A DNA stretch of 30,174 bases from Alphaproteobacteria bacterium. Lineage in GTDB: Bacteria; Pseudomonadota; Alphaproteobacteria; CACIAM-22H2. The stretch is from positions 1 to 30,174 of the forward strand of contig DATAAP010000334.1 of assembly GCA_036260035.1 (NCBI GenBank), given 5' to 3'. Every line of letters starts with the position of its first letter. Within the stretch, counting starts at the first letter, position 1. This document shows positions 2,276 to 21,806 of the stretch, in pieces. A program made the position numbers and the translations under genes. A model generated the notes under the pieces. It saw only the letters and a program-made list of their open reading frames with translations, was not told the DNA's origin and ran no database searches.

Positions 2276-3262
2276 CTAGAGCTTGAAGATGCGCTGCGCG
2301 TTCTTGCCGCGCACCGCGTCGCGCTGTGCGCCCGGCAGCTCGTCGACGCGCTTCAGGCAGCCCACCATGTCGCCAATATTGTGCGGATAGTCGGAGCCGT
2401 ACATCACCCGCTCGGCGCCGCCCACGTCGATGCACAGCTTCAGCGACTCCGGCCGATACGTCACCGCGTCGTAGTAGATGCGGCGCAGGTATTCGCTGGG
2501 CGGCGTCGACGTCTTCACCCGGCACGCATTCATGTTTTCGAAGCAGGTTTCCAGCCGCCCGGCCAGGAAGGGCAGTGCGCCGCCCGCATGCGAGGCGATC
2601 AGCTTCAGGTTCGGATAGCGGTCGAGGAAGCCGTCGAAGAAGATGCGCGCGAAGGCGAGGCTGGTGTCGAACATGAAGCCGATCGAGGCGATTAGGTTGT
2701 AGGCCCGCATGTCCATCTGCGGCGTGCCCGGCGGCGCCGTGGGATGCACCAGCACTGGTAGGGCGCGGTCGTCGATCGCCTTCCAGACTGGCGCGAAGAG
2801 CGGATCGGTCAGCGAGCGGTTGCCGATATTGGCGAGCACCATGACGCCGACGGCGCCCTTGTCGCAGGCCCGCGCCAGCTCCTCGATGGCCTTGTCGGGA
2901 TATTCGAACGGCAGCGAGGCGAGCCAGCGGATGCGCGAGGGGTAGGTGTTCTGCGCCTCGGCCATCGAATCGTTGACGATCTGTGCTGCCTTAAGGCTGA
3001 TCTCGGCGCCGCCGAAATAGACGTTCGGGCAGGTGAGCGAAACGATCGCGAGATCGACTTTGGCTTCGTCCATGCGCTTGATGCGGTACGCGTAATCGAA
3101 GTGGCCGGGCTGCGGCGTCATGAAGGGCGCGCCATCCATCATGATTCCCTCCGGCGCGTCCAGGGAGGCGCGGATCTCGAAGCGCGGCTTGCCGTGATGG
3201 CGCAGCAGCTCGATCCAGTCGCGATTGAGCATGTGCGTATGGACGTCGATCGACGGTGTCAT
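2276..3262 (-). CDS. Amidohydrolase_2 family protein (ACMSD / aromatic-acid decarboxylase-like, 328 aa)
   Basis: C-terminal part of the 849-aa ORF, starting at MTPSIDVHTH. Metal ligand motifs HxH, LVHPT, ASHAGG and YGSDYPH. ATGA overlap with the stop of the TRAP fusion gene. Confidence 0.92.
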   Translation of the reverse strand: MTPSIDVHTHMLNRDWIELLRHHGKPRFEIRASLDAPEGIMMDGAPFMTPQPGHFDYAYRIKRMDEAKVDLAIVSLTCPNVYFGGAEISLKAAQIVNDSMAEAQNTYPSRIRWLASLPFEYPDKAIEELARACDKGAVGVMVLANIGNRSLTDPLFAPVWKAIDDRALPVLVHPTAPPGTPQMDMRAYNLIASIGFMFDTSLAFARIFFDGFLDRYPNLKLIASHAGGALPFLAGRLETCFENMNACRVKTSTPPSEYLRRIYYDAVTYRPESLKLCIDVGGAERVMYGSDYPHNIGDMVGCLKRVDELPGAQRDAVRGKNAQRIFKL

Positions 3263-6866: not shown

Positions 6867-9800
6867 TCAATAATCCCACTTCCAATTGACGCCGACACCG
6901 GCCGACGCGCTGCCCAGGCTGCTCTCGACCGTCACATTCGGCGTGATCTCGACCTCAACCTTCGAGCGGGTCGAGTCGCTTTTCATGCCCTGCTCGACCC
7001 CTAGGAACACGCGATCGCTGACGTATTTCCCGGCCGTCGCCGTTGTTCCCGAGGGGTCGCCAGCGCCGCCCGGCGCGCCCGACGAGATGTCGAGCCGGTC
7101 GAGCCCGGTCGCTGTGCGGAGGCGGTCGAGGATGCCGGGGCCGCCGCCCGCCAGGGTGGCCGCAGCTTGCGCTAGCTCAAGCCCCTGAGCCGGAGTCATC
7201 TCGCCGACGCTGCGCCCGAACAGGACGCGCGACAGAACCTCGTCGTCCGGCATCTGGGGCTGGGAGGTCAGCTTGAGCGTCGGGTTGGACGCGGTGCCGC
7301 TTATCACCGCCTGCGCGATGATCGCCGCGGCGCGGTGCTCGGCCGTGATCGCAAGCTGCGGATCGATTCGCTCGCCGCCGACGAAGGTGATCGTGCTGTC
7401 GCTCAGCCGGAAGCGCTTGCCAAGCAGCGAGAAATCGCCGCGTACGGTCTCGAGCTTGCCCGTGAGGATCGGCTTGGCGGTCGTTCCAGCGACGCGCATG
7501 GCGCCGCGCCATTCGCTGTCCAGCCCGCGGCCGCGCACGAAGGCGCGAGCAGGGATTTCCACGTCGAGCGCCAGCGCGATCGCGGAGCCGCCGGATGCCT
7601 GATCCGGCTTCGACAGCACCTCGCCGCTGCGGCTATCGATCTCGACGACCGGCAGGCGCGGGATGGTCGGCGGCAGGCGCTCGGGGATGCGGATCTCCGC
7701 GCGATCGACGCGCAAGCGCCCAGACAGGGTCGCCGCGTCCGTGGTGCCGGTGAAGCGAAATTCGCCATCGCCGGTCGCGGTCACGTCGTCGCGCCGCATG
7801 AAGCCGAAATTTCCGAAGCGGGCCACCACTTCGAACTTCGTTTCGCCTCCGGCTAGGTCGAGCGAGCCGCTGCCGTTCAGGCTGCCTTTCGCGCCGTCGG
7901 ATGCCGTGAGGCCGCGCAGCGCGAAATGGCCGCCTTCGCCCGCGACCTCCCCGGCTAGATTCCTGATCTCGGTGCCTGCGGCAAAGTTGACGTAATGGCC
8001 GTCGCGGATCGTGAGCCGCCCACTCGGCTCGGGGGCAGCGGGCGTGCCGCCGATCGCGAGGTTGATCGAATAGCGACCGCCGAGCCGGTCCTCGCCGAGC
8101 GGCAGCAACGCGGCCCAGGGCTCGAGCCGTCCGTCGCCCTTTGCCGCGACACGTAGGGCACCGTCACGGACGAGCAAGGGCATTAGGCCGACCGGATCGA
8201 GTTTCAGCGGCAGCGTTCCGCTCAGATCAAGTTTCGTCCCGTCCGGAGCTGCGATCTGGCCGGTTGCTTCGAGGCGCTCGCCCTTCCAAGTGCCGATGCT
8301 GGTCAATGCGAGCGGCGGCAGTTCGCTGGCGGCAGCCATGCGCATGTCGCGCACGCTGAGTTCCATCTGGCCGTCGGGCTGCGCGGCCGTGGCGGCCATT
8401 CGGATCGTCGCGTCGAGCGCGCCGCTGACTCTCTGCGCCGGTGCCGCGAGCTCCACCAGCGCTAGTGGCATGTCGCGCAACTGTGCCTGCAGCGCGAGGC
8501 GGTTGCCCTCGCGCGACGCCGAGGCGGTTGCGCGGCCCTTGCCAACACTGATATCTAGCCCGTTCATCTTGAACCTGTTCGCGCCGAGCGCGAGCGTCAG
8601 CGGCGCATGACTTGCGATCGCGTGCTCGCCGATTAGCCCAGCAAGGCGCGTGACACGAATGCGTTGCTCGGCCCCGCCGATCGAGATCTCGCTTGCGCCG
8701 CTCAACCGCAGCGGCCGCGCATCGGCCGCCGGCCGCAACACGCCGCGCGCATCGAGGGAGACAGCGAACAGGTCGGGCTTCGTCGACTGACCGTTGGCAC
8801 GCAAGCTGTCGACGCGCAGATCGGGCAGGGTCACGGCGGATGCATCGACGCTCGCGCGTCCCGCCGGTCTGCCCAGCAGATCGCTGAGGTGTGCGTCGAT
8901 TCTAATTCGCTCGGCCGCGGCCTGAGCCGAATCGATATGCAGATTGCGTATCGAAGCGTCGATATCCGCGCGCTGCCCATCCTTCTCAACCAACGAAATC
9001 CGCGCATCGACCGCACCGGCAAGTGCCGTGCCGGCGAGCGGCGACCACCGTGACAGATCGGCGATGCGGGCAGTCAGCGTGCCGGAGGCGCCCGGGTGAC
9101 TGGTCCTGACCTTGAGCGCACCGGTCAGCTCGCTGCCGGGAGCGCGCACCGAGAGCTTCGGGACATCGACCGTTTCCCCACTGGTGCGGGCGAACGCGGC
9201 ATCGATGGTGGCATTCAGGGTGCCGGCGTTGAGCACAGCGGCCAATGTGCCGGCTGGCGACAGCGCGTCGCTGAGCGCGATTTTGGCGCTGAGCCGATCC
9301 AGCCGCTGCTTGCCGAAGCGCAGGTCGTGCGCAACAGCGTCGATGTCGGCCGTTGGGTTCTCGACCGACCCCGTGAGGTGTGCCTGGACGCTCGCGGCGC
9401 CTGTCATCGGTGCGCCGAGCGGATCCGAGAGCACGTCGAGCCGCGGTGCTTCGATTCTAGCGCGGGCTTCGAGCGTGGAAAGATCGGCAGTGGTTGTGGC
9501 GCTCGCCGATGCGGTGACATGCGCGCCGGCGATGGCGAGAGCCTCGACCGCAAGCGCGCCGTCGGCCGCGCGCCGCACCGTTGCATTCAGATCGGGCCGT
9601 GCGCCGATCAACGAGTCGAGGACGGCAACTCCGGTTGCGAGGTCTTGGCTCCGCCCCGTGATCCGCGCGACCACGGCACCGGCATCGAGTTCGACCTCCG
9701 AGGCAAGCGATAGGCTGCCGCTCAGCGGAATTCCGGCGGCGTCCCGCCAACGCGCCAGATCGGGCGCGTGCAGATTTATGGAGGCATGGCCGCGCGGCGT

Positions 9801-11198
9801 AGCGGACAGATCCTCGGCGATTCCGCTGGCCGCAATTGCCACGCCCCCGCCGCGCAGATCGAGACGCTCGAGCGTGAGGCGCCCTGCGCTTTCGTCAAAC
9901 TGCGTCGCCACGGCCCATTCGATCGCGTGCGGCAGTCCTGGCCGGGTAACAGGCCACACAAAGCCGGTCGCTTCGCCTGAGCCATGCAGCGACCATGTCG
10001 CTTGGCGGCGCTCGCCGCGGAGCTTTGCCGTTAGCTGATCCGCGTCGATCGGCCCACCAAACTGCGTCGCCGTCAGCGTGACCTCGACATGCGGCGAATC
10101 GGGCGTGCCGCGCGCATCGAGCCGCATGCCGGCGGCGCCGCGCAGGGGCAGATTGAACGCCACGCCGAGCGGCTTCAGGTCAGGGGCGACCGTATGGGCC
10201 GTCCCGGTGAATTGCGCTGTGCGACGGTCGAACGCGCCGGACGCGGTGACGGTTGCGATGCCGCTGTCGATCGTCAGGCGCTCGATCGCGAGCCGCGTGT
10301 CGACGACTTCGAACGCGCTTGTTATCCGCACCGGCGTCAGCAGCTCTTTGAGCGGCGGCGGCAGCAGCCCTTTCGCCGAAACCGTGCCATCGCTGGTCAC
10401 ATGCAGCGCATCGCGCTGCGCCAGCGACACTGCGGTCTCGATGCGCGCTTCCGCGCCGGCGTCGATCACGATTCTGCCGCGCCAATCCTCCAGGGCGCCG
10501 TCGCCATGAACAGCGATGCGCAGCGGTACCGGGTCCGCTCGGGCGAGCACACGTTGCAGCACCGTTCCCGACGGCTCAGCCGCATCGAGGTGCAGTGCGA
10601 GCGACCGGTCGCGGCTCAGATGGAAATCCAGGCGCGCATGCCCCGCGCCGTCGGTCCGTTCGACGGTAAGCTGCGCCATGGCCTCGTTGCCGGTGAGTGC
10701 GCCTCGTGCCGACAGCGCGAATGTCATCGCCTCGCCAGCAAGGGATTCGCCGAGCTGCAAGCGGTCGATGGTGATTGCGTCCGCGGCCACGCGCACCGGC
10801 AAGCGCGGCAGGGAAAAGGACTCCGGGTCCGACGGCCGCTGCTCTGGCTGCCCTTGTGGCGACCGCGACACCGTCACGCTTGCGGCCGACAGGCGGCGGA
10901 GAGTGAACTGACCCGTCAGCAGATCCCGTAGCCTCAGCTCGAGCGCTGCGTCCTCGATAGCGAGCCATACCCCCGCCTTGTCCGCCGCTTCAATGGTCTC
11001 GACATGCAGCCGAGAAGGCACGAAGCCGCTGATTCCAGTGATAATCAGGCTGCTATTGCTGGACGACAGGGCGCGCGACAGCGAGGCGGCGAGCCAGGTG
11101 CGGCCAGCGTCTGTCTGAAGGGCGGCAAGCCCCGCCAGAGCGGCCACTGCCAACAGCAGCGCAACAGCACCGAGAACACGAAACGACCGCCGCAGCAC
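6867..11198 (-). CDS. tamB: Translocation and assembly module subunit TamB (AsmA-like, DUF490 C-terminus; 1443 aa)
   Basis: N-terminal TM anchor, long beta-taco-like body, and a DUF490-type end (RGRGLDSEWRG, GKRFRL, GKYVSDRVFLGVEQ, GVGVNWKWDY). Downstream of tamA. Confidence 0.93.
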   Translation of the reverse strand: MLRRSFRVLGAVALLLAVAALAGLAALQTDAGRTWLAASLSRALSSSNSSLIITGISGFVPSRLHVETIEAADKAGVWLAIEDAALELRLRDLLTGQFTLRRLSAASVTVSRSPQGQPEQRPSDPESFSLPRLPVRVAADAITIDRLQLGESLAGEAMTFALSARGALTGNEAMAQLTVERTDGAGHARLDFHLSRDRSLALHLDAAEPSGTVLQRVLARADPVPLRIAVHGDGALEDWRGRIVIDAGAEARIETAVSLAQRDALHVTSDGTVSAKGLLPPPLKELLTPVRITSAFEVVDTRLAIERLTIDSGIATVTASGAFDRRTAQFTGTAHTVAPDLKPLGVAFNLPLRGAAGMRLDARGTPDSPHVEVTLTATQFGGPIDADQLTAKLRGERRQATWSLHGSGEATGFVWPVTRPGLPHAIEWAVATQFDESAGRLTLERLDLRGGGVAIAASGIAEDLSATPRGHASINLHAPDLARWRDAAGIPLSGSLSLASEVELDAGAVVARITGRSQDLATGVAVLDSLIGARPDLNATVRRAADGALAVEALAIAGAHVTASASATTTADLSTLEARARIEAPRLDVLSDPLGAPMTGAASVQAHLTGSVENPTADIDAVAHDLRFGKQRLDRLSAKIALSDALSPAGTLAAVLNAGTLNATIDAAFARTSGETVDVPKLSVRAPGSELTGALKVRTSHPGASGTLTARIADLSRWSPLAGTALAGAVDARISLVEKDGQRADIDASIRNLHIDSAQAAAERIRIDAHLSDLLGRPAGRASVDASAVTLPDLRVDSLRANGQSTKPDLFAVSLDARGVLRPAADARPLRLSGASEISIGGAEQRIRVTRLAGLIGEHAIASHAPLTLALGANRFKMNGLDISVGKGRATASASREGNRLALQAQLRDMPLALVELAAPAQRVSGALDATIRMAATAAQPDGQMELSVRDMRMAAASELPPLALTSIGTWKGERLEATGQIAAPDGTKLDLSGTLPLKLDPVGLMPLLVRDGALRVAAKGDGRLEPWAALLPLGEDRLGGRYSINLAIGGTPAAPEPSGRLTIRDGHYVNFAAGTEIRNLAGEVAGEGGHFALRGLTASDGAKGSLNGSGSLDLAGGETKFEVVARFGNFGFMRRDDVTATGDGEFRFTGTTDAATLSGRLRVDRAEIRIPERLPPTIPRLPVVEIDSRSGEVLSKPDQASGGSAIALALDVEIPARAFVRGRGLDSEWRGAMRVAGTTAKPILTGKLETVRGDFSLLGKRFRLSDSTITFVGGERIDPQLAITAEHRAAAIIAQAVISGTASNPTLKLTSQPQMPDDEVLSRVLFGRSVGEMTPAQGLELAQAAATLAGGGPGILDRLRTATGLDRLDISSGAPGGAGDPSGTTATAGKYVSDRVFLGVEQGMKSDSTRSKVEVEITPNVTVESSLGSASAGVGVNWKWDY

Positions 11199-11236
11199 GA
11201 TATCTAGTCCTGCCCTTATGGCATCGGATACAACGC

Positions 11237-12997
11237 CTAAAACGCCTGACCGATGCTCACGTAGATCTGGAATGAATCGTCTTCCGGCCGCTTATTCAAG
11301 GGGACGCCGACATCGAACCGCACCGGTCCGATCGGGGTGTAGTAGCGGAGACCGACCCCCGTGCCATAGCGTAACCCGTCGCCCGGGCGCGGAAGGGTGG
11401 TTTCATAGACATTGCCAGCCTCGAGGAAGGGGACGACGCCGATCGTCTCCGTGACTTTGATCCGCAGCTCGACGCCCAGCTCCAGCGACGAGCGGCCGCC
11501 GATCGGATTTCCGGCGGCGTCGAGCGGCCCGGCCTTCTGGAAGCCATAGCCCCGCACCGAGCCGCCGCCGCCGACATACAACCGCTTGTCCTCAGGCAGG
11601 GCGTCGCGCGACTCGCCGATGATCGAGCCCACGGCGGCATAGCCGGCAAGGACGTAGTCGCGCCGGTCATCGAGGGCGCGGTAGGCGCTGCCGAGCAGGC
11701 GCGAAGACAAGAAACGGAGGCCGGTACCGGCATACGGCGTGGTCGTCAGGCTCTGGCGCGAGCCCTCGGTAGGATCGAGCAGATTGTCTGTCACATCGCG
11801 ACGGAGGAAGAGCGGCAGACCGAACAGGGTGTAGTCGAAAGTGCCGTCCGACTCCTCGATGTGCGTGCGCTCGACCTGTGCGCCGGCGCCGCCCGTCCAG
11901 ATGTCGCTGAACCGCTGTTCAAGCCCGCTGAAAAGGAGGGCCCGGCGCCGATTGTACGCCTCGAGCTCCTCGTCCTCGGCGAGCGCCGTTGCGACGAAAT
12001 CCCGATCTATGGCGAAGAGATCGGGGCGCCGGAAGTCGCCTTGCAGGGCGTGCCGCTTCTCGCCGGTCTCGGCCGTCGTGCGCAGGCGCTCCGCACCGCC
12101 GAACAGATTGCGGTGCTCCCAATAGGCACGCGCGGACAGGCCGAGCGAGGTATCATAGTTGAGCCCGACGGCGATCGATCGTGGCGGCCGCTCCGCGACC
12201 TCGATGATCATCGGGATGCGCCCTTCGCCATCGACGGTCTCGGCCGCGCGGACGCGCACTGTCGCGAACAGGCCGCTCGCGACCAGATCCTTGCGTGTGC
12301 GCTCGACGAAACGCACGTCGTACGGGTTGCCCTCGACCCAAGCAACGCGACGTCGCACATAATCGGGATCGACGTCGCTCGTGCCGGTGACGGTCAGCGG
12401 GCCGAAGGTCGCGATCGGGCCGACATCGACAAAGTAGGTCACGTCCATGGTCTTGGTCGCCTTATCGACCTCAACCCGCCGCTTGCTGATCTTCGCCAAG
12501 GGGAAGCCATGCTCCGCAAGCACGCGGACGATCTTCGGTTCGGCATCGAGCACCGGCTTCGACAGGGCTGGCCCGCCGAGTTTGAGCCCGAAGGCGAGCG
12601 GGGCGTAGCGCTGCAACAGGGGCGGGGGCGTGCCCTCCTCGCTCGTCAAAGTGACCATCGATAGCGTGTAGCGGACGCCGGACTCGATGGTCACGCGCAC
12701 GCGCGCCGGGTCGGCGCTGTCGTCAATTGCGAAAGCGATGGTCGCGTCGTAGTAGCCGTTCGCACGGAGCGCCGCATCCAGCCGCTCGCGATCGGCTTCC
12801 GCGCGCCGCCGCAGCGCCAGCAGGGAGTCCGGCTTGCGGTCTTCCTGCTGCACGAGTTGCGAGGCCTCGCGGAGATCGCGCGCCAACGCCTTGTCTTCGA
12901 CGCCGACGATCTCAGTGCGATAGGCGATATCGGCGGCGACCGGGGGCGCCGCGGCCGCGCAGAACAGCAAAACCATTGCGAGAAACGCGCGCCTCAT
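11237..12997 (-). CDS. tamA: Omp85-family outer-membrane protein TamA (about 586 aa)
   Basis: Signal peptide MRRAFLAMVLLFCAAAA (RBS GGGAGA), POTRA region, Omp85 motif GGGSVRGYGF, LRYYTPIGPVRFD and terminal YVSIGQAF. Confidence 0.95.
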   Translation of the reverse strand: MRRAFLAMVLLFCAAAAPPVAADIAYRTEIVGVEDKALARDLREASQLVQQEDRKPDSLLALRRRAEADRERLDAALRANGYYDATIAFAIDDSADPARVRVTIESGVRYTLSMVTLTSEEGTPPPLLQRYAPLAFGLKLGGPALSKPVLDAEPKIVRVLAEHGFPLAKISKRRVEVDKATKTMDVTYFVDVGPIATFGPLTVTGTSDVDPDYVRRRVAWVEGNPYDVRFVERTRKDLVASGLFATVRVRAAETVDGEGRIPMIIEVAERPPRSIAVGLNYDTSLGLSARAYWEHRNLFGGAERLRTTAETGEKRHALQGDFRRPDLFAIDRDFVATALAEDEELEAYNRRRALLFSGLEQRFSDIWTGGAGAQVERTHIEESDGTFDYTLFGLPLFLRRDVTDNLLDPTEGSRQSLTTTPYAGTGLRFLSSRLLGSAYRALDDRRDYVLAGYAAVGSIIGESRDALPEDKRLYVGGGGSVRGYGFQKAGPLDAAGNPIGGRSSLELGVELRIKVTETIGVVPFLEAGNVYETTLPRPGDGLRYGTGVGLRYYTPIGPVRFDVGVPLNKRPEDDSFQIYVSIGQAF

Positions 12998-13121
12998 CCC
13001 CGCATCTCCCATCGCGGCGGCGGCACGCCGCGTTCTCCCGCGCTCACGCAATCGAGCATGCCAGCCCTGCCGCGCCATGCGTTGACCCCCCGGACCGCAG
13101 GCCATAGGGTCCTGCCGAAAC

Positions 13122-14405
13122 ATGGCGCCGCAAATCAGCTCTGCGCAACAGTCCGTTGCTACCGGTCACGTGGCGGGTGGTTCATGGCGGCCGCTGCTCG
13201 CCTGGGCGCTCGCCTCCCTGTTCTTCTGCTACGGCTTCGTGCAGCGCGTCTCGCCCAGCGTGATGGTCGAGGAGCTGATGCGCGATTTCGCGGTCAGTGC
13301 CACCATCCTCGGCAACCTGTCGGCATTCTATTTCTATGCCTACGCCGCCCTGCAGGTCCCGGTGGGGCTGCTGATGGACCGCATCGGGCCGCGGCGGCTG
13401 ATGACCGCGGCGGCGGCGGTCGCGGCGGCGGGAAGCCTGATCTTTGCCGCCAGCGAGGCGATCGCCGGCGCCTATGTTGGGCGGCTGCTGATCGGCGCGG
13501 GCGCGGCTTTCAGTTGGGTCGGGGTGCTGACCATCCTAACGCAGTGGTTCCCGGCGCGGCGATTCGCCCTGTTCACCGGCATGGCGCAGGCGATGGGGAT
13601 GGCCGGCGCCATTTTCGGCCAGACGCCGCTTGCCGTTTCCGTGGAGCAGGCCGGCTGGCGCATGACTGTCGTCGTTATCGCCGGAATCGGGCTCGCGATC
13701 GCGATCGGCATGTGGCTGGTGGTGCGCGACAAGCCGCACGCCTCGGCCTCCTCTGCGGGGATCCTCGCGAGCCTCAAGGTTCTGCTGAGCAATCGCGAAA
13801 CCTGGCTCAATGCCGTGTTTGGCTTGGCGATGACGGCGCCGATGCTGGCCTTCGCTGCGCTCTGGGCGGTGCCGTATCTCACAACCGTGTATGGCATCGA
13901 GCGGTCTGCCGCGACCGGCGTCCTGTCCTTCATGTTCGCGGGCTGGGCGATCGGCGCGCCATTCATGGGCTGGCTGTCCGACCGCATCGGCGCGCGCCGG
14001 CCGGTCATGATCGTCGGCGCTTTGATCAACGTGATCACTTACCTCGTTGTGATCCAGCTGCCGTCGCTGCCGCTCGCTGCGGTGAGCGCCATCATCCTCG
14101 TCCACGGCGTCGGCGCCTCGGCGATGGTGCTCGGCTTCGCCGCCGTGCGCGAGCACAATCCGCCGGAGATGAGCAGCACCGCGATGGGCATCGTCAATGT
14201 GGCGGTGATCGGCAGCGGTGCGATCTTTCAGCCACTGGTCGGCTGGCTACTGGACCTACAATGGAGCGGAGAGCTCGGCGCCGGCGTGCGGGTCTACAGC
14301 GCCGAGGCGTTCCGCATTGCGCTCAGCGTCCTTTCCGTCGCGGGCATCGGCGGGCTGTGCGCCACCCTCCTGATGAAGGAAAGCCTCGCCCGCCGACCCG
14401 CTTGA
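13122..14405 (+). CDS. MFS transporter (427 aa)
   Basis: About 12 hydrophobic segments; MFS motif A in both halves (GLLMDRIGPRR; GWLSDRIGARR). Exact start uncertain because the RBS is weak. Confidence 0.92.
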   Translation: MAPQISSAQQSVATGHVAGGSWRPLLAWALASLFFCYGFVQRVSPSVMVEELMRDFAVSATILGNLSAFYFYAYAALQVPVGLLMDRIGPRRLMTAAAAVAAAGSLIFAASEAIAGAYVGRLLIGAGAAFSWVGVLTILTQWFPARRFALFTGMAQAMGMAGAIFGQTPLAVSVEQAGWRMTVVVIAGIGLAIAIGMWLVVRDKPHASASSAGILASLKVLLSNRETWLNAVFGLAMTAPMLAFAALWAVPYLTTVYGIERSAATGVLSFMFAGWAIGAPFMGWLSDRIGARRPVMIVGALINVITYLVVIQLPSLPLAAVSAIILVHGVGASAMVLGFAAVREHNPPEMSSTAMGIVNVAVIGSGAIFQPLVGWLLDLQWSGELGAGVRVYSAEAFRIALSVLSVAGIGGLCATLLMKESLARRPA

Positions 14406-15875: not shown

Positions 15876-16778
15876 GTGGACCGATTCGAGAATCTGAAAG
15901 CTTTCATCCGCGTCGCCGAGACTCGCAGCTTCTCAGAAGCGGCGCGGCAACTCCGGCTGTCCAAATCCGTTGTGGCTAAGCGCGTCGGGCAGCTTGAGCG
16001 CCAGCTCGAAGTGCGGCTTTTTCATCGCACCACGCGGCAGGTCCGCCTCACCGAGTCAGGCTCTGCCTACTATGCGCGCGCTGTGCCGCTGATCGCCGAG
16101 CTCGAGGATATGGACAGCGCCGTTGGCAGGGAGAAGGCCGAGCCGCGCGGCGAGCTGCGCGTCTCTTCGCCGACCTCCTTCGGCACGCTGCATCTCGGCC
16201 CCGCGCTGTGCGATCTGCAGAAGCAATATCCGCGGCTGAACATCGAGCTGGTGTTGAACGACCGCGTGGTGAACCCGGTCAATGAGGGCTTCGATGTGGC
16301 GCTGCAGGACGCCCCGGCCTCGTCGCCGCTGCTGATCGAGCGCCGGATCGCGCCAATGCGGCGGGTCGTCTGCGCGTCGCCGGGCTATCTGCGCGGGCGT
16401 GGGACGCCGCGGCATCCGCTCGATCTCACGGAGCATGATTGCATCCAGTACAGTTTCCTGCAGACCGGCAATGTCTGGGTTTTCGAAGGCCGCAAGGGCA
16501 GGACGACGGTCGCGGTGAAGCCGCGCTTCACCACGAATAGCGGGCAGGTGATGCGCGATGCCGCCCTGCGCGGCAACGGCGTGGCGCTGCTGCCGACTCT
16601 GCTGGTCGGTCCGGACCTGCGCCGCAAGCGCCTGGTGGCGGTCCTCGGCGAGTGGTCGCCGCCCGAATTGTGGATCTCCGCCGTCTATCCGCAAACCCAC
16701 CGCGCGGCGCTCAAAGTGCGGCTGCTGATCGATTTCCTGCTGAAGCGGTTCGGGGAGATTCCCCCGTGGGACCGCTAG
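15876..16778 (+). CDS. LysR-family transcriptional regulator (CrgA/DmlR-like, 300 aa)
   Basis: HTH motif SFSEAARQLRLSKSVVAKRVGQLERQLEVRLFHRTTR, plus GELRVSSP, EGFDVAL and KVRLLIDFL. Divergent from ycaC-pirin. Confidence 0.96.
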   Translation: MDRFENLKAFIRVAETRSFSEAARQLRLSKSVVAKRVGQLERQLEVRLFHRTTRQVRLTESGSAYYARAVPLIAELEDMDSAVGREKAEPRGELRVSSPTSFGTLHLGPALCDLQKQYPRLNIELVLNDRVVNPVNEGFDVALQDAPASSPLLIERRIAPMRRVVCASPGYLRGRGTPRHPLDLTEHDCIQYSFLQTGNVWVFEGRKGRTTVAVKPRFTTNSGQVMRDAALRGNGVALLPTLLVGPDLRRKRLVAVLGEWSPPELWISAVYPQTHRAALKVRLLIDFLLKRFGEIPPWDR

Positions 16779-18265
16779 GCCCTGCGCAGCGCATGCCAGG
16801 CGCGGATGATCAGCGGCCAGAACAGGAACAGCACCGCCAGCGCGATGATCGTCCCTGAGATCGGCCGGGTGACGAGGATCGTCGGATCGCCCAGCGACAG
16901 CGTGAGGCTGCGCCGCAGCTGCTCCTCCAGCATCGGCCCAAGGACGAGGCCGAGAATGAGCGGCCCCTCCGGGAATTTGAGCTTGCGCAAGAGATAACCG
17001 ACCACGCCCGACACGATCATGACATAGACGTCGAATTCCTTGGTCTCGGCCGCATAGACGCCGATGAAGGCGAAGAACAGGGTGATCGGGCCGAGGATCT
17101 CGTAGCGGATGCGGATCAGCCGCACCCAGATCCCGATCAGCGGCAGGTTGAGGATCAGCAGCATCACGTTGCCGATATACATGCTGGCGATCACGCCCCA
17201 GACCAGGTCGGGATTTGTCTCGAACAGGCGCGGGCCCGGCCGCACGTCATTGAGGATCAGCGCTGCCAGCATGACGGCCGCCGTGCCTGACGCGGGAATG
17301 CCGAGCGTCAGGAGCGGCACCATCGCGCCGGTGGCCGATGCGTTGTTTGCGGCTTCCGGCGCCGCCACACCCTCAATGGCGCCCTTCCCGAACCGCTCCG
17401 GCGTGCGCGACTGCTTGCGTTCGGTCACGTAGGCGATCATCGACGCCGCCGTGGCGCCGATGCCTGGCAGGGTCCCCAGCCAGAAGCCGATCAGCGTGCC
17501 GCGTAGGATGGCCATGCGGGCGGCGACCCACTCCGCGGCGCCCGGCAGCAGGCGGTGGATCTTGTCGGGCACGGCGTCCTGCCGCAGGCGGCGCTCGATG
17601 TTCTCGAGCACCTCCGCCACGCCGAACATGCCGACGATCACCGGCAGGAAGCCGATGCCTTCCAGGAGTTCCGGCATGCCGAAGGTGAAGCGCGATACGC
17701 CGCTCTGGGTGTCGATGCCGACCGTGCCGATCATCAGCCCGAGCACGGCGGCGATCAGCCCCTTGACGAGCGACTGGCCGAGCAGGCCGCCGATGGTGGT
17801 CAGCGACAGGATCATCAGCGCGGCGTATTCGGGCGGGCCGAACGAAAGGGCGACTCTCGCCAGAGTCGGTGCTACCAGCATAAGCCCGAAGACGCCGGCC
17901 GTTCCGGCGATGAAAGACGCGATCGCCGCCATGCCGAGCGCCTGGCCGGCGCGGCCCTGGCGCGCCATCTGGTGCCCGTCGAGGCACGTCATGACCGACG
18001 TCGACTCACCCGGCAAGTTGAGCAGAATCGCCGTGGTCGAACCGCCATACTGGGCGCCGTAATAGATGCCGGCCAGCATGATTAGCGCCGAGGTCGGGTC
18101 CATGCCGAGGGTCGCGGGAATCAGAATCGCGACGCCGGTAATGGTGCCAAGGCCAGGCAGCACGCCGACTGCCGTCCCCAGCACCGTGCCGAGCAGGCAA
18201 TAGAGCAAGTTGTGCGGCGCAAGTGCGACCGCGAATCCGCTGGCGAGGCTCTGAATGATATCCAT
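16775..18265 (-). CDS. tctA: Tripartite tricarboxylate transporter large permease TctA (496 aa)
   Basis: [35 protein letters not shown] and [14 protein letters not shown] overlap with tctB. Confidence 0.96.
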
Positions 18266-18729
18266 CAGATGGGCAGCACGCCGGAGGGCAGGCGCAGCTT
18301 CAGGATGACGACGAAGACGACGTGCGCGGCGACGACCACCGCCGCCGGCACGCCCAGCCAGAGCCACCAGCGCAGCCGCCCGAACAAGGGCGTGACCGCG
18401 ACCAGGAACAGGAAGGACGCCAAAATGAATCCGAGCGTCTCGAGAAGCAGCCCGTAGGCGACGAGCGCCACGAGCGCGAGGGCGATCTTGCCCAACCCTT
18501 GCGCGGTGAACTCTACCTTCTCTCCGCCCGCATCGCGCAGCAGCAGCGACTTGCCTAGCAACGTCAGGCAGAGAACGAGCATGATCGTGCCGAGGACGAG
18601 CGGCACGAACCCTGGCGTCGACGAGGTCGCATAGCGCGGAACGGGAAGTTGCCAGGCGAGGTATAAATAGAAAGCGGCCGCCGCGCTGAGGGCGGCGGCC
18701 GCGATCCCCTCAAGGTGCCTGAGGGTCAT
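18265..18729 (-). CDS. tctB: Tripartite tricarboxylate transporter small subunit TctB (154 aa)
   Basis: Four hydrophobic segments, PGFVP, LETLGF and C-terminal LRLPSG. Lies between tctC and tctA; C-terminal part of the listed 282-aa ORF. Confidence 0.9.
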   Translation of the reverse strand: MTLRHLEGIAAAALSAAAAFYLYLAWQLPVPRYATSSTPGFVPLVLGTIMLVLCLTLLGKSLLLRDAGGEKVEFTAQGLGKIALALVALVAYGLLLETLGFILASFLFLVAVTPLFGRLRWWLWLGVPAAVVVAAHVVFVVILKLRLPSGVLPI

Positions 18730-18733
18730 CCGG

Positions 18734-19702
18734 TCACTTCTTGAGCATGCCCAGCTTTTCGAACACGCCCTTGAACTGGTCGTGCTCCTTATTGACATAA
18801 GCCATGAGCTGATCGCCCACGAGCCAGCCGTCTTCCTGATACACCTTGGCGAGGTAGCCCTTCGTCCAATCATCGGTCGCGCGCATCTTGCCGAGCACGT
18901 CGACCCAGTAGTCGACGACCGCCTTCGGCAACCGCGGCGGCCCGCCGATCCCGCGCCAGTTGTAGCTGACCATGTCGACCCCGGCTTCCTTGAAGGTCGG
19001 CACGTTGGGGAAATCGGCGAGGCGCTTGTTGTCCGCGACGCCGAGGGCGCGCACCTGGCCCGCCTTGATCTGCTCGACGCATTCGCTCGGATTGGCCCAC
19101 GCCGCGTCGACATGCCCTCCGAGCAGGGTGGTGAGCACCTCGGAGCCGGCCTTGGTTACCAAATAGTTCGTCTCCTGCCCGATCGCCTTATCGAAGTCGA
19201 GCGAGGCCATGTGGTCCTGCGAGCCGGTCGCCGTGCCCGCGATGCTGAAGCGCTTGCCCTTCTTCTTCGCCTCGGCGACCGCGTCCTGCAGGGTCTTCAG
19301 CGGCGAGTCGGTCTTGACGATCAGGAAGTTGACGTCGTCGACCAGCTTCGCGATGTACGTGAAATCCTTCTTATAGTCCTGCGGCGCCTCGCCAAGCAGC
19401 TGCTGCAGCACCGGGTTGGGATCCATTATGCCGAGCGTGTAGCCGTCCGGCCGGGCCTGGCTGAACTGGGTGCGTGCGATGGCACCGCCGCCGCCGGGCT
19501 TGTTCACAATCGCGATCGGCACCGGCACGAGCTTGTGCTGCTCGATGACCTTGACGACGTTGCGGATCATAATGTCGCTGCCGCCGCCGGCAGCGTACGG
19601 CACGATGATCTCAATGGGACGCGATGGGTACTTGTCCTGCGCGGCTGCCGCAGTGATGCCGCCGAGAACGACCAGTACCGCAGCAAATATTCTATTGAGC
19701 AT
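18734..19702 (-). CDS. tctC: TctC/Bug-family periplasmic binding protein (322 aa)
   Basis: Signal peptide, YPSRPIEIIVPYAAGGGSD, VNKPGGGGA, PDGYTL, LLGGHVD and VPTFKEAG. GGAGG 7 nt before the ATG. Confidence 0.95.
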   Translation of the reverse strand: MLNRIFAAVLVVLGGITAAAAQDKYPSRPIEIIVPYAAGGGSDIMIRNVVKVIEQHKLVPVPIAIVNKPGGGGAIARTQFSQARPDGYTLGIMDPNPVLQQLLGEAPQDYKKDFTYIAKLVDDVNFLIVKTDSPLKTLQDAVAEAKKKGKRFSIAGTATGSQDHMASLDFDKAIGQETNYLVTKAGSEVLTTLLGGHVDAAWANPSECVEQIKAGQVRALGVADNKRLADFPNVPTFKEAGVDMVSYNWRGIGGPPRLPKAVVDYWVDVLGKMRATDDWTKGYLAKVYQEDGWLVGDQLMAYVNKEHDQFKGVFEKLGMLKK

Positions 19703-19743
19703 CAATTTTCCTCCCGAGTGCGGCTCTTTTGGCCGTCCGTTCG

Positions 19744-19771
19744 ATTATCAATCTATTGACGCAAAACGCAA
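19744..19771 (-). promoter_or_regulatory. Putative sigma70 promoter of tctCBA with internal palindrome
   Basis: Minus strand TTGCGT-N16-GATAAT. The near-palindrome TCAAT-ct-ATTGA (19748-19759) overlaps the spacer and the edge of the -10 element. Confidence 0.4.
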
Positions 19772-19840
19772 CGTGTTCGCTTCCAAGCCGGAAAGCGTGC
19801 CCTCATCAGCCGCCTGTAGGCCCCTTAGGACATTTCGCCC

Positions 19841-19894
19841 TTAACGGAAAATTTGCCATGCCTTAAGCCCGCCTTAAGCATAACGCGCTTTAAC
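19841..19894. promoter_or_regulatory. Phased TTAA half-site array (CtrA/OmpR-family-like) upstream of the motA-like gene
   Basis: TTAA at 19841, 19863, 19874 and 19890. The direct repeat GCCTTAAGC occurs at 19860 and 19871 (11-bp period), giving TTAA-N7-TTAA. Confidence 0.55.
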
Positions 19895-19929
19895 TCTACG
19901 GCGCGGGATCAGTGCAGTGGAGCTCTGGC

Positions 19930-20682
19930 ATGCCGTTCGATAACACGCGCTGGCGCCTTTTCGCCCACACCAACAACGCGGCGCAAGCGGTCGCCGACCT
20001 CGACGTTCACGCCCAGCAGGAGCGCATCCGCGAGGCGTTCAAGCCGACGCAGCCCTACGCCTACGACTACCTGCTGCTCTTTCGCTACGCACTCATCAAT
20101 CTGGCCGGCATCGCCCTGATGGCCGCCGCCTACATGCAGGGCTGGATCGACCTGGTCCGCCAAGCCGACCCGACACATCAATGCACGGCTATTTTCGCGG
20201 TGTTCCTCGCCGGACTGTTCATCTGCACGATGCAGGTCATCCGCATCAGCGCCGAGCTCAACCAGGCCCACGCCGCACACCCGTCGCCGAAGTCCCGCGC
20301 CGGCCGCTATTTCGCGCAGATCGCTACGCGCGGCGGCGAAAGCCGCGCGATGCTGGCAAGCGCCCTTAAGGCCAAGCTCATGGCCCGCACCGCCATCGTG
20401 CGCCACATCGCCGGCACGCTCGTCATCCTCGGCCTGATCGGCACCGTGGTCGGCTTCATCATCTCGCTGTCTGGCGTGAGCCCCGACGGTGTGGCCGACG
20501 CGAAGTCGATCTCGCCGATGATCTCCAAGCTGATCCTCGGCATGTCGGTGGCGCTGTACACGACCCTGGTCGGCGCGATCCTGAACGTCTGGCTCATGGT
20601 CTGCTACCACGTCCTCGTCTCCGGCACGATGCGGCTGGTGACCGCCATCGTCGAGCGCGGGGAGCTCGAAGGCCATGCATGA
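19930..20682 (+). CDS. MotA/TolQ/ExbB proton-channel family protein, 4 predicted TM (about 250 aa)
   Basis: Family motifs LGLIGTVVG and GMSVALYTTLVG (conserved Thr residues). Two additional N-terminal hydrophobic segments. GGAG 7 nt before the ATG at 19930 (ORF open from 19912). Confidence 0.88.
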   Translation: MPFDNTRWRLFAHTNNAAQAVADLDVHAQQERIREAFKPTQPYAYDYLLLFRYALINLAGIALMAAAYMQGWIDLVRQADPTHQCTAIFAVFLAGLFICTMQVIRISAELNQAHAAHPSPKSRAGRYFAQIATRGGESRAMLASALKAKLMARTAIVRHIAGTLVILGLIGTVVGFIISLSGVSPDGVADAKSISPMISKLILGMSVALYTTLVGAILNVWLMVCYHVLVSGTMRLVTAIVERGELEGHA

Positions 20683-21283
20683 CATTTTTGGCGACGACGA
20701 TGACAACGGCACGGTCTTCCGCGACGTCATCACGCTGGCGCTGTGCGGCTTCGTCGCCATCGTAGTTCTGCTGCTGCCGCATCTGAACCCGCCTGCCCAG
20801 GCGAACGTGGTCGAGGCGGTCGCTGCACCCGGCAATGTGATCGTCGAGATCCGCTGGCCCGACGGCAGCGACGCGGATGTCGATCTCTGGGTCCAGGCGC
20901 CCGGGGACGTGCCCGTGGGCTATTCGAACAAGGGCGGCGCCATCTTCAACCTGCTGCGCGACGATCTCGGCCGCGTCGGCGATCCGACCAACCAGAATTA
21001 CGAGATCTCCTTCAGCCGCGGCCTGCCGCCCGGCGAATACACGGTGAATGCCCATCTCTACCGCAACCCGAGCGGACGGCCGGTCGAGGTGACCATGGCG
21101 ATCAGCAGCAAGCCGAACGCGCAGTCGAGCGCCCGGCCGCTGCTGACGACCAAGCTCGTGCTGCGGCGCGAAGGCGAGGAGCTGACCGGCTTCCGCTTCA
21201 CCCTCGACGAGAACGGCCGCCTGCAGGCCGGCAGCGCGCACAATCTCTACAAGCCGCTGCGGTCCGCAGCCCAGAAGCGCTGA
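20675..21283 (+). CDS. MotB/ExbD-like single-TM protein with YfaP/DUF2135-like periplasmic domain (202 aa)
   Basis: TM FRDVITLALCGFVAIVVLLL aligns with MotB YADFMTAMMAFF (Asp17). The C-terminal domain has DADVDLWVQAPG...GG...RDDLG...NYE...PGEYTVNAHLY. 8-nt overlap with the motA-like gene. The ORF is secure; the domain call is by eye. Confidence 0.72.
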   Translation: MHDIFGDDDDNGTVFRDVITLALCGFVAIVVLLLPHLNPPAQANVVEAVAAPGNVIVEIRWPDGSDADVDLWVQAPGDVPVGYSNKGGAIFNLLRDDLGRVGDPTNQNYEISFSRGLPPGEYTVNAHLYRNPSGRPVEVTMAISSKPNAQSSARPLLTTKLVLRREGEELTGFRFTLDENGRLQAGSAHNLYKPLRSAAQKR

Positions 21284-21293
21284 CAGAGCGGCC

Positions 21294-21806
21294 ATGAACG
21301 ACCTCGTCTATCTCTTCGGCGGCGCCATCTTCGTCGCCTTCGTCCTGGCCAGCATCAGCATCTGGGCGCCGCGCCGCGTGGTCGTGCGCATGACGGCCTT
21401 CGTAGTCTCGGCGCTGTTCGTGCCGCTGAGCTATGCCGCTTTCGCGTCCCTGCTGTCGAAGCCGAAACCGGTGGCGCTCGAATGGCTGCGCGGAGCGACG
21501 CAGGAGGCGAACGTCCTCGGCGCGACGATCAACGAGGGCCAGGCGATCTATGTCTGGCTGCAGATGCCCGGTGTCGATGAGCCGCGCGCCTATACGCTGC
21601 CGTGGAGCATGGAGCTTGCCAAGCAGCTCCAGGAGGCGCGGCGCAAGGCCGAGGAGCAGGGGACGGGCCTCGGCATGCGGCTTCCCTTCGAGCATAGCTG
21701 GGACAAGCAGGAGCCGAAATTCTATCCCCTGCCGCAGCCCGCATTGCCGCCCAAGGACGCGCCCGCAGCGCCCATGGAACTCGAGCATCCCAGCACGCAA
21801 GCCTGA
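21294..21806 (+). CDS. Hypothetical membrane protein, 2 N-terminal TM plus soluble domain plus Pro-rich tail (170 aa)
   Basis: 10-nt gap from the previous gene; host-like codon usage. Two hydrophobic segments are separated by PRRVVVR. The tail EPKFYPLPQPALPPKDAPAAP has 8 Pro in 21 residues. Confidence 0.8.
   Translation: MNDLVYLFGGAIFVAFVLASISIWAPRRVVVRMTAFVVSALFVPLSYAAFASLLSKPKPVALEWLRGATQEANVLGATINEGQAIYVWLQMPGVDEPRAYTLPWSMELAKQLQEARRKAEEQGTGLGMRLPFEHSWDKQEPKFYPLPQPALPPKDAPAAPMELEHPSTQA

Follow-up and report, generated by a model that had tools for sequence, protein, structure and literature searches.

What kind of membrane machine is encoded where a channel gene of the MotA/ExbB/TolQ family is followed by a small protein that carries an aspartate in its only membrane helix and a YfaP-type domain in its periplasmic head? 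Motors of the 5:2 type are known to drive flagella, import across the outer membrane, the upkeep of envelope integrity, gliding, and one system of defence against phages. The question is raised by a stretch of 30,174 nucleotides from an alphaproteobacterium (GTDB lineage CACIAM-22H2; assembly GCA_036260035.1, contig DATAAP010000334.1, positions 1 to 30,174), hereafter called the window, in which three membrane protein genes that we name A, B, and C follow each other on the forward strand. The original prediction, made from the letters of the window, had described gene B as a MotB-type ion-conducting helix fused to a YfaP/DUF2135-like domain in the place of a peptidoglycan-binding domain. In this report we consider that gene B encodes the inner subunit that bears the Asp (the B or transpore-helix subunit) in a membrane motor of the MotA/ExbB/TolQ type that is ion-driven and so far uncharacterised, and we give this reading a probability of about 0.78.

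The A-B-C trio

Gene A (19930..20682, forward strand, with an alternative GTG start at 19912) encodes a channel subunit of 250 amino acids (aa) with four hydrophobic segments. Its membership in the MotA/ExbB/TolQ family is seen in the match to the Pfam model PF01618 (E 3.4e-10, 40 bits against a cut-off of 22.9), and it has no match in PHROGs. Gene B (20675-21283, forward strand) is an open reading frame (ORF) of 202 aa, the ATG of which lies 8 bp inside the 3' end of gene A (A stop at 20682), and its product is a single-pass membrane protein in which a short acidic N-terminus leads into the membrane helix with the Asp, and a short linker connects this helix to a head folded as a beta-sandwich. 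Gene C (21294..21806, forward strand) starts 10 bp after the stop of gene B and encodes a third membrane protein of 170 aa. Neither B nor C matches any family in Pfam, NCBIfam, PADLOC, or PHROGs.

A scan for related loci, using one genome per species and an 18-sequence alignment as the query, revealed gene B in more than 550 species, which include Azospirillum brasilense and other Azospirillum, Geminicoccaceae, Kiloniellales, Sneathiellales, and some Gammaproteobacteria. Of the 80 loci fetched from different species, 79 show A, B, and C in this order and the remaining one ends at a contig edge; the starts of the trio genes mostly overlap or abut the preceding stop. Every other gene family is limited to about 6 of the 80 flanks at most. 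Relatives of gene B fall into 4750 clusters at 90% identity and 1493 clusters at 50% identity, nearly all of them about 200 aa in length and every named one labelled "hypothetical." Six longer forms, the only ones met, are not real fusions, since all of them are frameshifted read-throughs of A-B-C gene calls with Arg/Ala-rich filler that is out of frame. The window itself belongs to a draft genome (713 contigs, 86% complete) with two further MotA_ExbB loci, of which one resembles a ybgC-tolQ-tolR-tolA cluster and the second encodes a flagellar MotA that includes MotA_N. Because the same genome separately possesses a tol cluster and a flagellar MotA, the trio represents a third, separate system.

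An aspartate helix beside a conserved channel

An ion-conducting helix with an Asp was part of the original prediction. The position of gene B beside a MotA/ExbB-family gene agrees with it, as does conservation on both sides of the proposed interface. The transpore-type membrane helix of gene B spans residues 10-37 (20702..20785, forward strand) in the AlphaFold2 model, where its predicted local distance difference test score (pLDDT) is 92-98, and the codon of Asp17 is GAC at 20723-20725, just as had been read. In an alignment of 69 homologues (37-72% identity) the invariant residues are D17, W61, D68, D70, W72, L93, R95, D96, D97, G99, E110, and T171, and since these positions are invariant across the 69 homologues the motifs of gene B are not a matter of chance. 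A larger alignment of 271 sequences, which includes the protein p040 of phage 16-3, contains 261 sequences that cover the Asp17 column; the residue is kept in 257 of them (98%), and of the four exceptions two look misaligned, their Asp being shifted by one or two positions. Loss of Asp17 among homologues had been named beforehand as the result that would speak against the prediction, and what is found is clearly the opposite.

Gene A shows the corresponding conservation. The invariant residues among 35 aligned A proteins, p038 of phage 16-3 included, are L167, G168, G171, T172, G175, A208, T212, G215, and W221. They contain the motif LGxxGT172xxG in the third hydrophobic segment and A208xxxT212xxG in the fourth, each with an invariant channel threonine, and both motifs are kept even in the phage copy. 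Such motifs of the third and fourth membrane segments are known to line the pore and face the Asp of the B subunit in ExbB, TolQ, and MotA, as has been restated for TolQ-like motors (PMC12204202). By hhalign, gene A is closer to the TolQ of the same genome (E 7.7e-5) than to MotA (E 0.0082). It also gives weak partial matches to ZorA, PomA, and ExbB models, and those to ZorA extend over 60-80 residues and are far below the cut-offs.

It had further been proposed that the helix of gene B (F-R-D17-V-I-T-L-A-L-C-G-F) lies in the register of the MotB consensus. This register holds, although it is statistically weak: when the gene B family profile is aligned with ZorB (8qyd_F), D17 falls on its Asp (E 0.67), and hhalign sets D17 on the Asp of the TolR of the same genome (P 0.025 over 29 columns), both alignments being non-significant. 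The residues that would correspond to D17 are D25 in ExbD and D23 in TolR. The local pattern F-x-D-V-(I/M)-(T/L) looks more like that of ExbD and TolR, and F-R-D-V-I-T is nearer to their FVDVML than to the YADFMT of MotB. Pfam searches at E <= 10 gave no match to OmpA and none to ExbD (PF02472) in the 69 gene B members, and the TolR of the same genome matches PF02472 at 8.8e-32. A match to MotB_plug is seen in one of the 69 members (E 0.0087), and the linker that follows the helix has about 14 residues.

The YfaP-type head and its TerD-like fold

The periplasmic head of gene B (residues 52-177; 20828..21205, forward strand) is a YfaP-type domain with a TerD-like fold, as follows from its sequence relation to YfaP together with its structural match to TerD. 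All of the motifs on which the original prediction was based are present in the translation; besides the helix pattern given above, these are DADVDLWVQAPG at residues 66-77, GG at 87-88, RDDLG at 95-99, NYE at 108-110, and PGEYTVNAHLY at 119-129. The resemblance to YfaP/DUF2135 is real over the whole sandwich, with hhalign aligning the 69-member gene B family to a 30-member YfaP family at E 5.3e-5 (probability 66.8%, 121 columns). The invariant residues of the two families superpose in this alignment, at W61, D68, D70, P76, Y83, D96/D97, E110, G120, N125, and E169-L-T171, and E. coli YfaP matches the gene B family profile over 112 columns (P 6e-4). The Pfam model of DUF2135 (PF09906, gathering threshold 22 bits) finds weak matches in 12 of the 69 members, the best at E 1.3e-4, and none in the gene B protein of the window at E <= 1. 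This weak signal arises because the Pfam model spans only the last 48 residues of the YfaP-type domain.

The AlphaFold2 model, built from the 69-sequence alignment, has a pLDDT of 91.5; in it the helix is followed, after a linker of about 14 residues, by a sandwich of eight strands within residues 52-177, the strands scoring above 90. When the sequence of gene B is compared with the PDB, only non-significant matches are obtained. When the model is compared by Foldseek, the TerD family comes first (2qng, 2qz7, 3ibz, 2kxt; E 1.5e-4 to 1e-3). The VIA search, which is independent of Foldseek, likewise gives TerD at Z 8.9 and 8.6 over 133-138 residues, with the next match at 6.1, and its top six neighbours are two TerD structures, DUF4425 (one of them solved with bound Ca), and C-terminal beta-domains of subtilisin-like proteases. 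TerD-like proteins are also among the viral-model matches of the head. Neither of the two structure searches returned an OmpA-like or ExbD-like structure. The earlier view that the periplasmic part belongs to neither of these families is therefore well founded, both in the lack of Pfam matches among the 69 members and in the confident all-beta model. The likeness to TerD is at the level of fold only, as no TerD signal is found in the sequences of the gene B or YfaP families (hhalign probability 0.3%) and the TerD profile (PF02342) matches one of the 69 gene B members at E 0.13.

Judging from the model, the most probable role of the invariant Asp, Asn, and Glu residues of the head is to make up a binding site for Ca2+ or for a ligand. 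D68, D70, D96, D97, D103, N108, and E110 would be located in loops and at the ends of strands, all at one pole of the sandwich, and the nearest solved folds are marked as Ca2+-binding by the titles of the PDB entries 2kxt and 2lge. In addition, the Ca2+ loop motif of TerD, GDNxTGxGDGDDE, stands opposite DVDVTTGYGPE of YfaP in a non-significant alignment. It is from these three observations that the proposed site is drawn.

As a separate observation, a profile of the B head (positions 52-161) gives weak matches at G198:C5:78226-78537 and G311:C5:158179-158493, inside open frames of about 1000 aa. These are probably large proteins with a DUF2135-type sandwich in another architecture.

The third membrane protein

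Gene C encodes two membrane helices that form a hairpin through an Arg-rich loop. Besides these, the protein contains a small alpha/beta domain and a Pro-rich tail, FYALPQPxxPPK, that is conserved, and its model has a pLDDT of 87. The invariant residues of the gene C alignment are L54, K58, P59, E81, I85, P97, W104, A109, F143, P147, and K154. Its fold has no clear solved relative, Foldseek giving nothing below E 0.059, and the VIA list is composed of membrane-hairpin matches that are uninformative for the periplasmic domain. No His is found in the membrane helices of gene C across the alignment. It is through a His in their membrane helix that TonB and TolA dock on their motors (PMC12204202). 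A predicted complex of the B head (residues 40-202) with C (residues 52-170) scored 0.28 (mark 0.32), and it is used here neither for nor against binding.

A proposed mechanism

By analogy with the solved 5:2 motors, five A subunits may surround two B helices. Asp17 would face the threonine ring of the A subunits (T172 and T212), and its protonation and deprotonation would drive the movement of A relative to B. About 14 residues past the helix, B carries a compact YfaP/DUF2135-type sandwich in place of an OmpA-like anchor or an ExbD fold, and C, with its hairpin, small domain, and Pro-rich tail, is likely an accessory or output partner.

Several points weigh against this interpretation. The similarity of the gene B helix to those of MotB, ExbD, and TolR is non-significant when taken alone (E 0.67; P 0.025). 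Gene B of the window is below the Pfam threshold for DUF2135 and the hhalign probability of its family is only 67%. Since TerD has no sequence signal in the family, the transfer of Ca2+ binding from TerD to B depends only on the shared fold and on where the acidic loops lie, and the clustering of the acidic residues at one pole is itself deduced from strand order.

Comparison with known motors

No paper describing the trio family was found; "DUF2135" occurs in none of the library searched, and "YfaP" returned nothing functional by titles and abstracts. A 2025 survey of MotAB relatives lists diverse non-flagellar B subunits, and a YfaP-type head is not among them (PMC12505986). The closest published idea is that of TolQ-like motors with transpore-helix-vWA partners, in which a tolQ-like gene without tolR or exbD is accompanied by proteins with a conserved Asp in an N-terminal helix and an unrelated periplasmic binding domain (Williams-Jones et al., 2025, PMC12204202). 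Gene B is similarly a B subunit of neither ExbD nor OmpA type that has a conserved Asp, whereas its head is of the YfaP/DUF2135 type and not vWA, a single B gene is present and not a heterologous pair, and there is a dedicated gene C.

MotAB/PomAB and ZorAB share with the trio an Asp-bearing single helix encoded beside a MotA-family gene, and it is with ZorB that the profile aligns the Asp. However, gene B differs from MotB, PomB, and ZorB in that an OmpA-like domain for peptidoglycan binding is absent, and probably also in the plug and the long linker, for which a single MotB_plug match among the 69 members is seen, and gene A differs from MotA in having neither MotA_N nor the torque-generating cytoplasmic domain, the real MotA of the genome being located elsewhere. 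Unlike Zorya, the trio is associated with no ZorC or ZorD, and the 250 aa of gene A contrast with the long cytoplasmic tail of ZorA.

The sandwich of gene B appears to be homologous to YfaP over about 120 residues. E. coli YfaP is encoded in yfaATSQP, an alpha-2-macroglobulin locus; the trio has no neighbourhood of this type, and YfaP has no Asp-bearing motor helix. TerD (2kxt, 2qz7, 3ibz, 2qng), which provides the best solved fold match for the head, is unlike gene B a soluble cytoplasmic protein, and the two have no relation at the sequence level.

Similar in overall plan are ExbB-ExbD-TonB and TolQ-TolR-TolA. Like these, the trio is made of three co-transcribed inner-membrane genes, its A protein is a MotA/ExbB/TolQ-family member that most resembles TolQ, gene B has the acidic N-terminus, the F-x-D-V at the start of a single helix, and the short linker of ExbD and TolR, and gene C resembles TonB and TolA in being membrane-anchored with a Pro-rich region. 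These likenesses give rise to the alternative that survives best, although we regard it as unlikely: the trio could be a Ton/Tol-like energiser in which B is an ExbD/TolR-type stator axle only and C is the true force transducer, its tail reaching the outer envelope while the B head merely regulates or docks C. The greater similarity of gene A to TolQ than to MotA would agree with this, as would the FVDVML-like helix motif, the membrane anchor and conserved tail of C, and the B linker, which at about 14 residues is too short to reach far from the membrane. In comparison with the Ton and Tol systems, the B head is an all-beta YfaP/TerD-like sandwich and not an ExbD/TolR domain, and gene A appears to have four membrane segments where ExbB and TolQ have three. 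Against the role of transducer, gene C forms a helical hairpin that lacks the SHLS-type His used by TonB and TolA, it has no C-terminal domain of their kind (no Pfam match to TonB_C or TolA_III), and its length is just 170 aa, of which the tail makes up about 40. In the 80 loci, moreover, there is no conserved outer-membrane partner gene nearby, with neither Pal, TolB, nor a TonB-dependent receptor linked to the trio.

Phage copies and the origin of the trio

Homologues of gene B are also carried by phages. A tblastn search found them in 27 phage records, all of them Rhizobium or Sinorhizobium phages, at 26-41% identity. The temperate phage 16-3 (DQ500118.1, 1208-4096) contains a miniature trio in which p038 is an A protein of 138 aa with both channel motifs kept, p040 is a B homologue with the Asp kept, and p042 is C; the small ORFs p039 and p041 are interleaved among these genes, and a trypsin-like periplasmic peptidase, p036, lies directly upstream. 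In phage RHph_X2_25 a trypsin-like peptidase (1089-1736) and several small ORFs are likewise found upstream of the B homologue (2498-3046).

It could be argued from the phage records, from the miniature A, B, and C genes beside a periplasmic peptidase in phage 16-3, and from the weak ZorA matches of gene A that the trio is a module of a Zorya-like or other phage-related kind, serving defence, the exclusion of superinfection, or the control of lysis, the motor of which senses or alters the envelope during infection, and that the cellular copies are domesticated or exchanged phage genes. We consider this improbable. The ZorA matches are far below the cut-offs and confined to the channel helices that are shared, neither B nor C is matched in PADLOC or PHROGs, and no conserved effector-type gene, such as a nuclease or a ZorC/ZorD-like gene, adjoins the trio in the 80 loci. 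A prophage or island origin of the window copy is unsupported as well. The trio sits between TctABC transporter genes and genes of coenzyme A (CoA) metabolism (enoyl-CoA hydratase and CoA-transferase), its guanine-cytosine content is like that of the surroundings (0.64-0.68 throughout), and the ORFs scanned, namely those at 14-27 kb and the large ones upstream, include no integrase.

A last alternative, that B is a periplasmic protein on a membrane anchor which serves Ca2+ binding or adhesion, shares no more than its transcription with a MotA-like channel, and uses its Asp for helix packing only, can draw on the non-significant helix similarity and on the occurrence of YfaP-type domains in non-motor contexts, but it is very improbable given that an Asp in the membrane helix of 98% of homologues, invariant channel Thr in A, and conserved translational coupling are the signature of known motors, and that the module encodes no other B-type candidate.

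Distribution and genomic setting

In an even sample of 401 Pseudomonadota genomes gene B was detected in 15 (about 4%), the window genome included and 13 of them by full-length matches, and in 12 of the 212 genera; the distribution is therefore patchy. Some genomes possess two copies of the whole trio (L018 and L049 in CAVSVZ010000002.1, L026 and L042 in JBHJGP01, L048 and L085 in CAVWDE01), and in one case the copies are about 7.5 kb apart on the same contig.

Upstream of gene A lies a TTAA-rich array (19841..19894) with one TTAA-N7-TTAA site of the CtrA type at 19863, which we regard as a candidate regulatory site only. The window contains two such sites in its 30 kb, at 34 and 19863. Such a site occurs in the 200 bp before gene A in 12 of 72 related loci, and the density is 0.79 per kb upstream of A vs. 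0.009 elsewhere in the loci, a ratio that is inflated by the AT-richness of intergenic DNA. Promoter and terminator scans gave nothing useful. The intergenic region 19706-19929 is shared with the TctA/TctB/TctC operon of a tripartite tricarboxylate transporter (16775-19705, reverse strand), of which TctC is confirmed by Pfam and TctA and TctB are read from ORF translations. Farther upstream, at 6867-13123 on the reverse strand, are TamB (1443 aa, PF04357) and TamA (628 aa, Omp85 plus POTRA), which make up the translocation and assembly module, an envelope system unrelated to the trio. An alpha-2-macroglobulin context for the window was rejected, as the large ORFs of 1443 and 628 aa are these two proteins.

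What the trio may mean

Beyond the assignment of gene B to an ion-driven motor, we hold as a tentative proposal, at somewhat less than even odds, that the trio is a functionally separate class of 5:2 motor with a rotating or cycling B dimer, a Ca2+-dependent YfaP-type head, and a Pro-tailed partner C, and that its envelope task lies outside those of flagella, Ton, Tol, gliding, and Zorya. To our knowledge, each new output domain of a 5:2 motor has so far brought to light a further way of using the proton gradient past the inner membrane. If the proposal is true, temperate rhizobiophages as well as large lytic ones would gain enough from the task to keep reduced copies of the machine. The presence of the trio in culturable and genetically tractable Azospirillum and in the classic Sinorhizobium phage 16-3 makes it directly testable, and the trio would give the orphan YfaP/DUF2135 domain its first mechanistic context.

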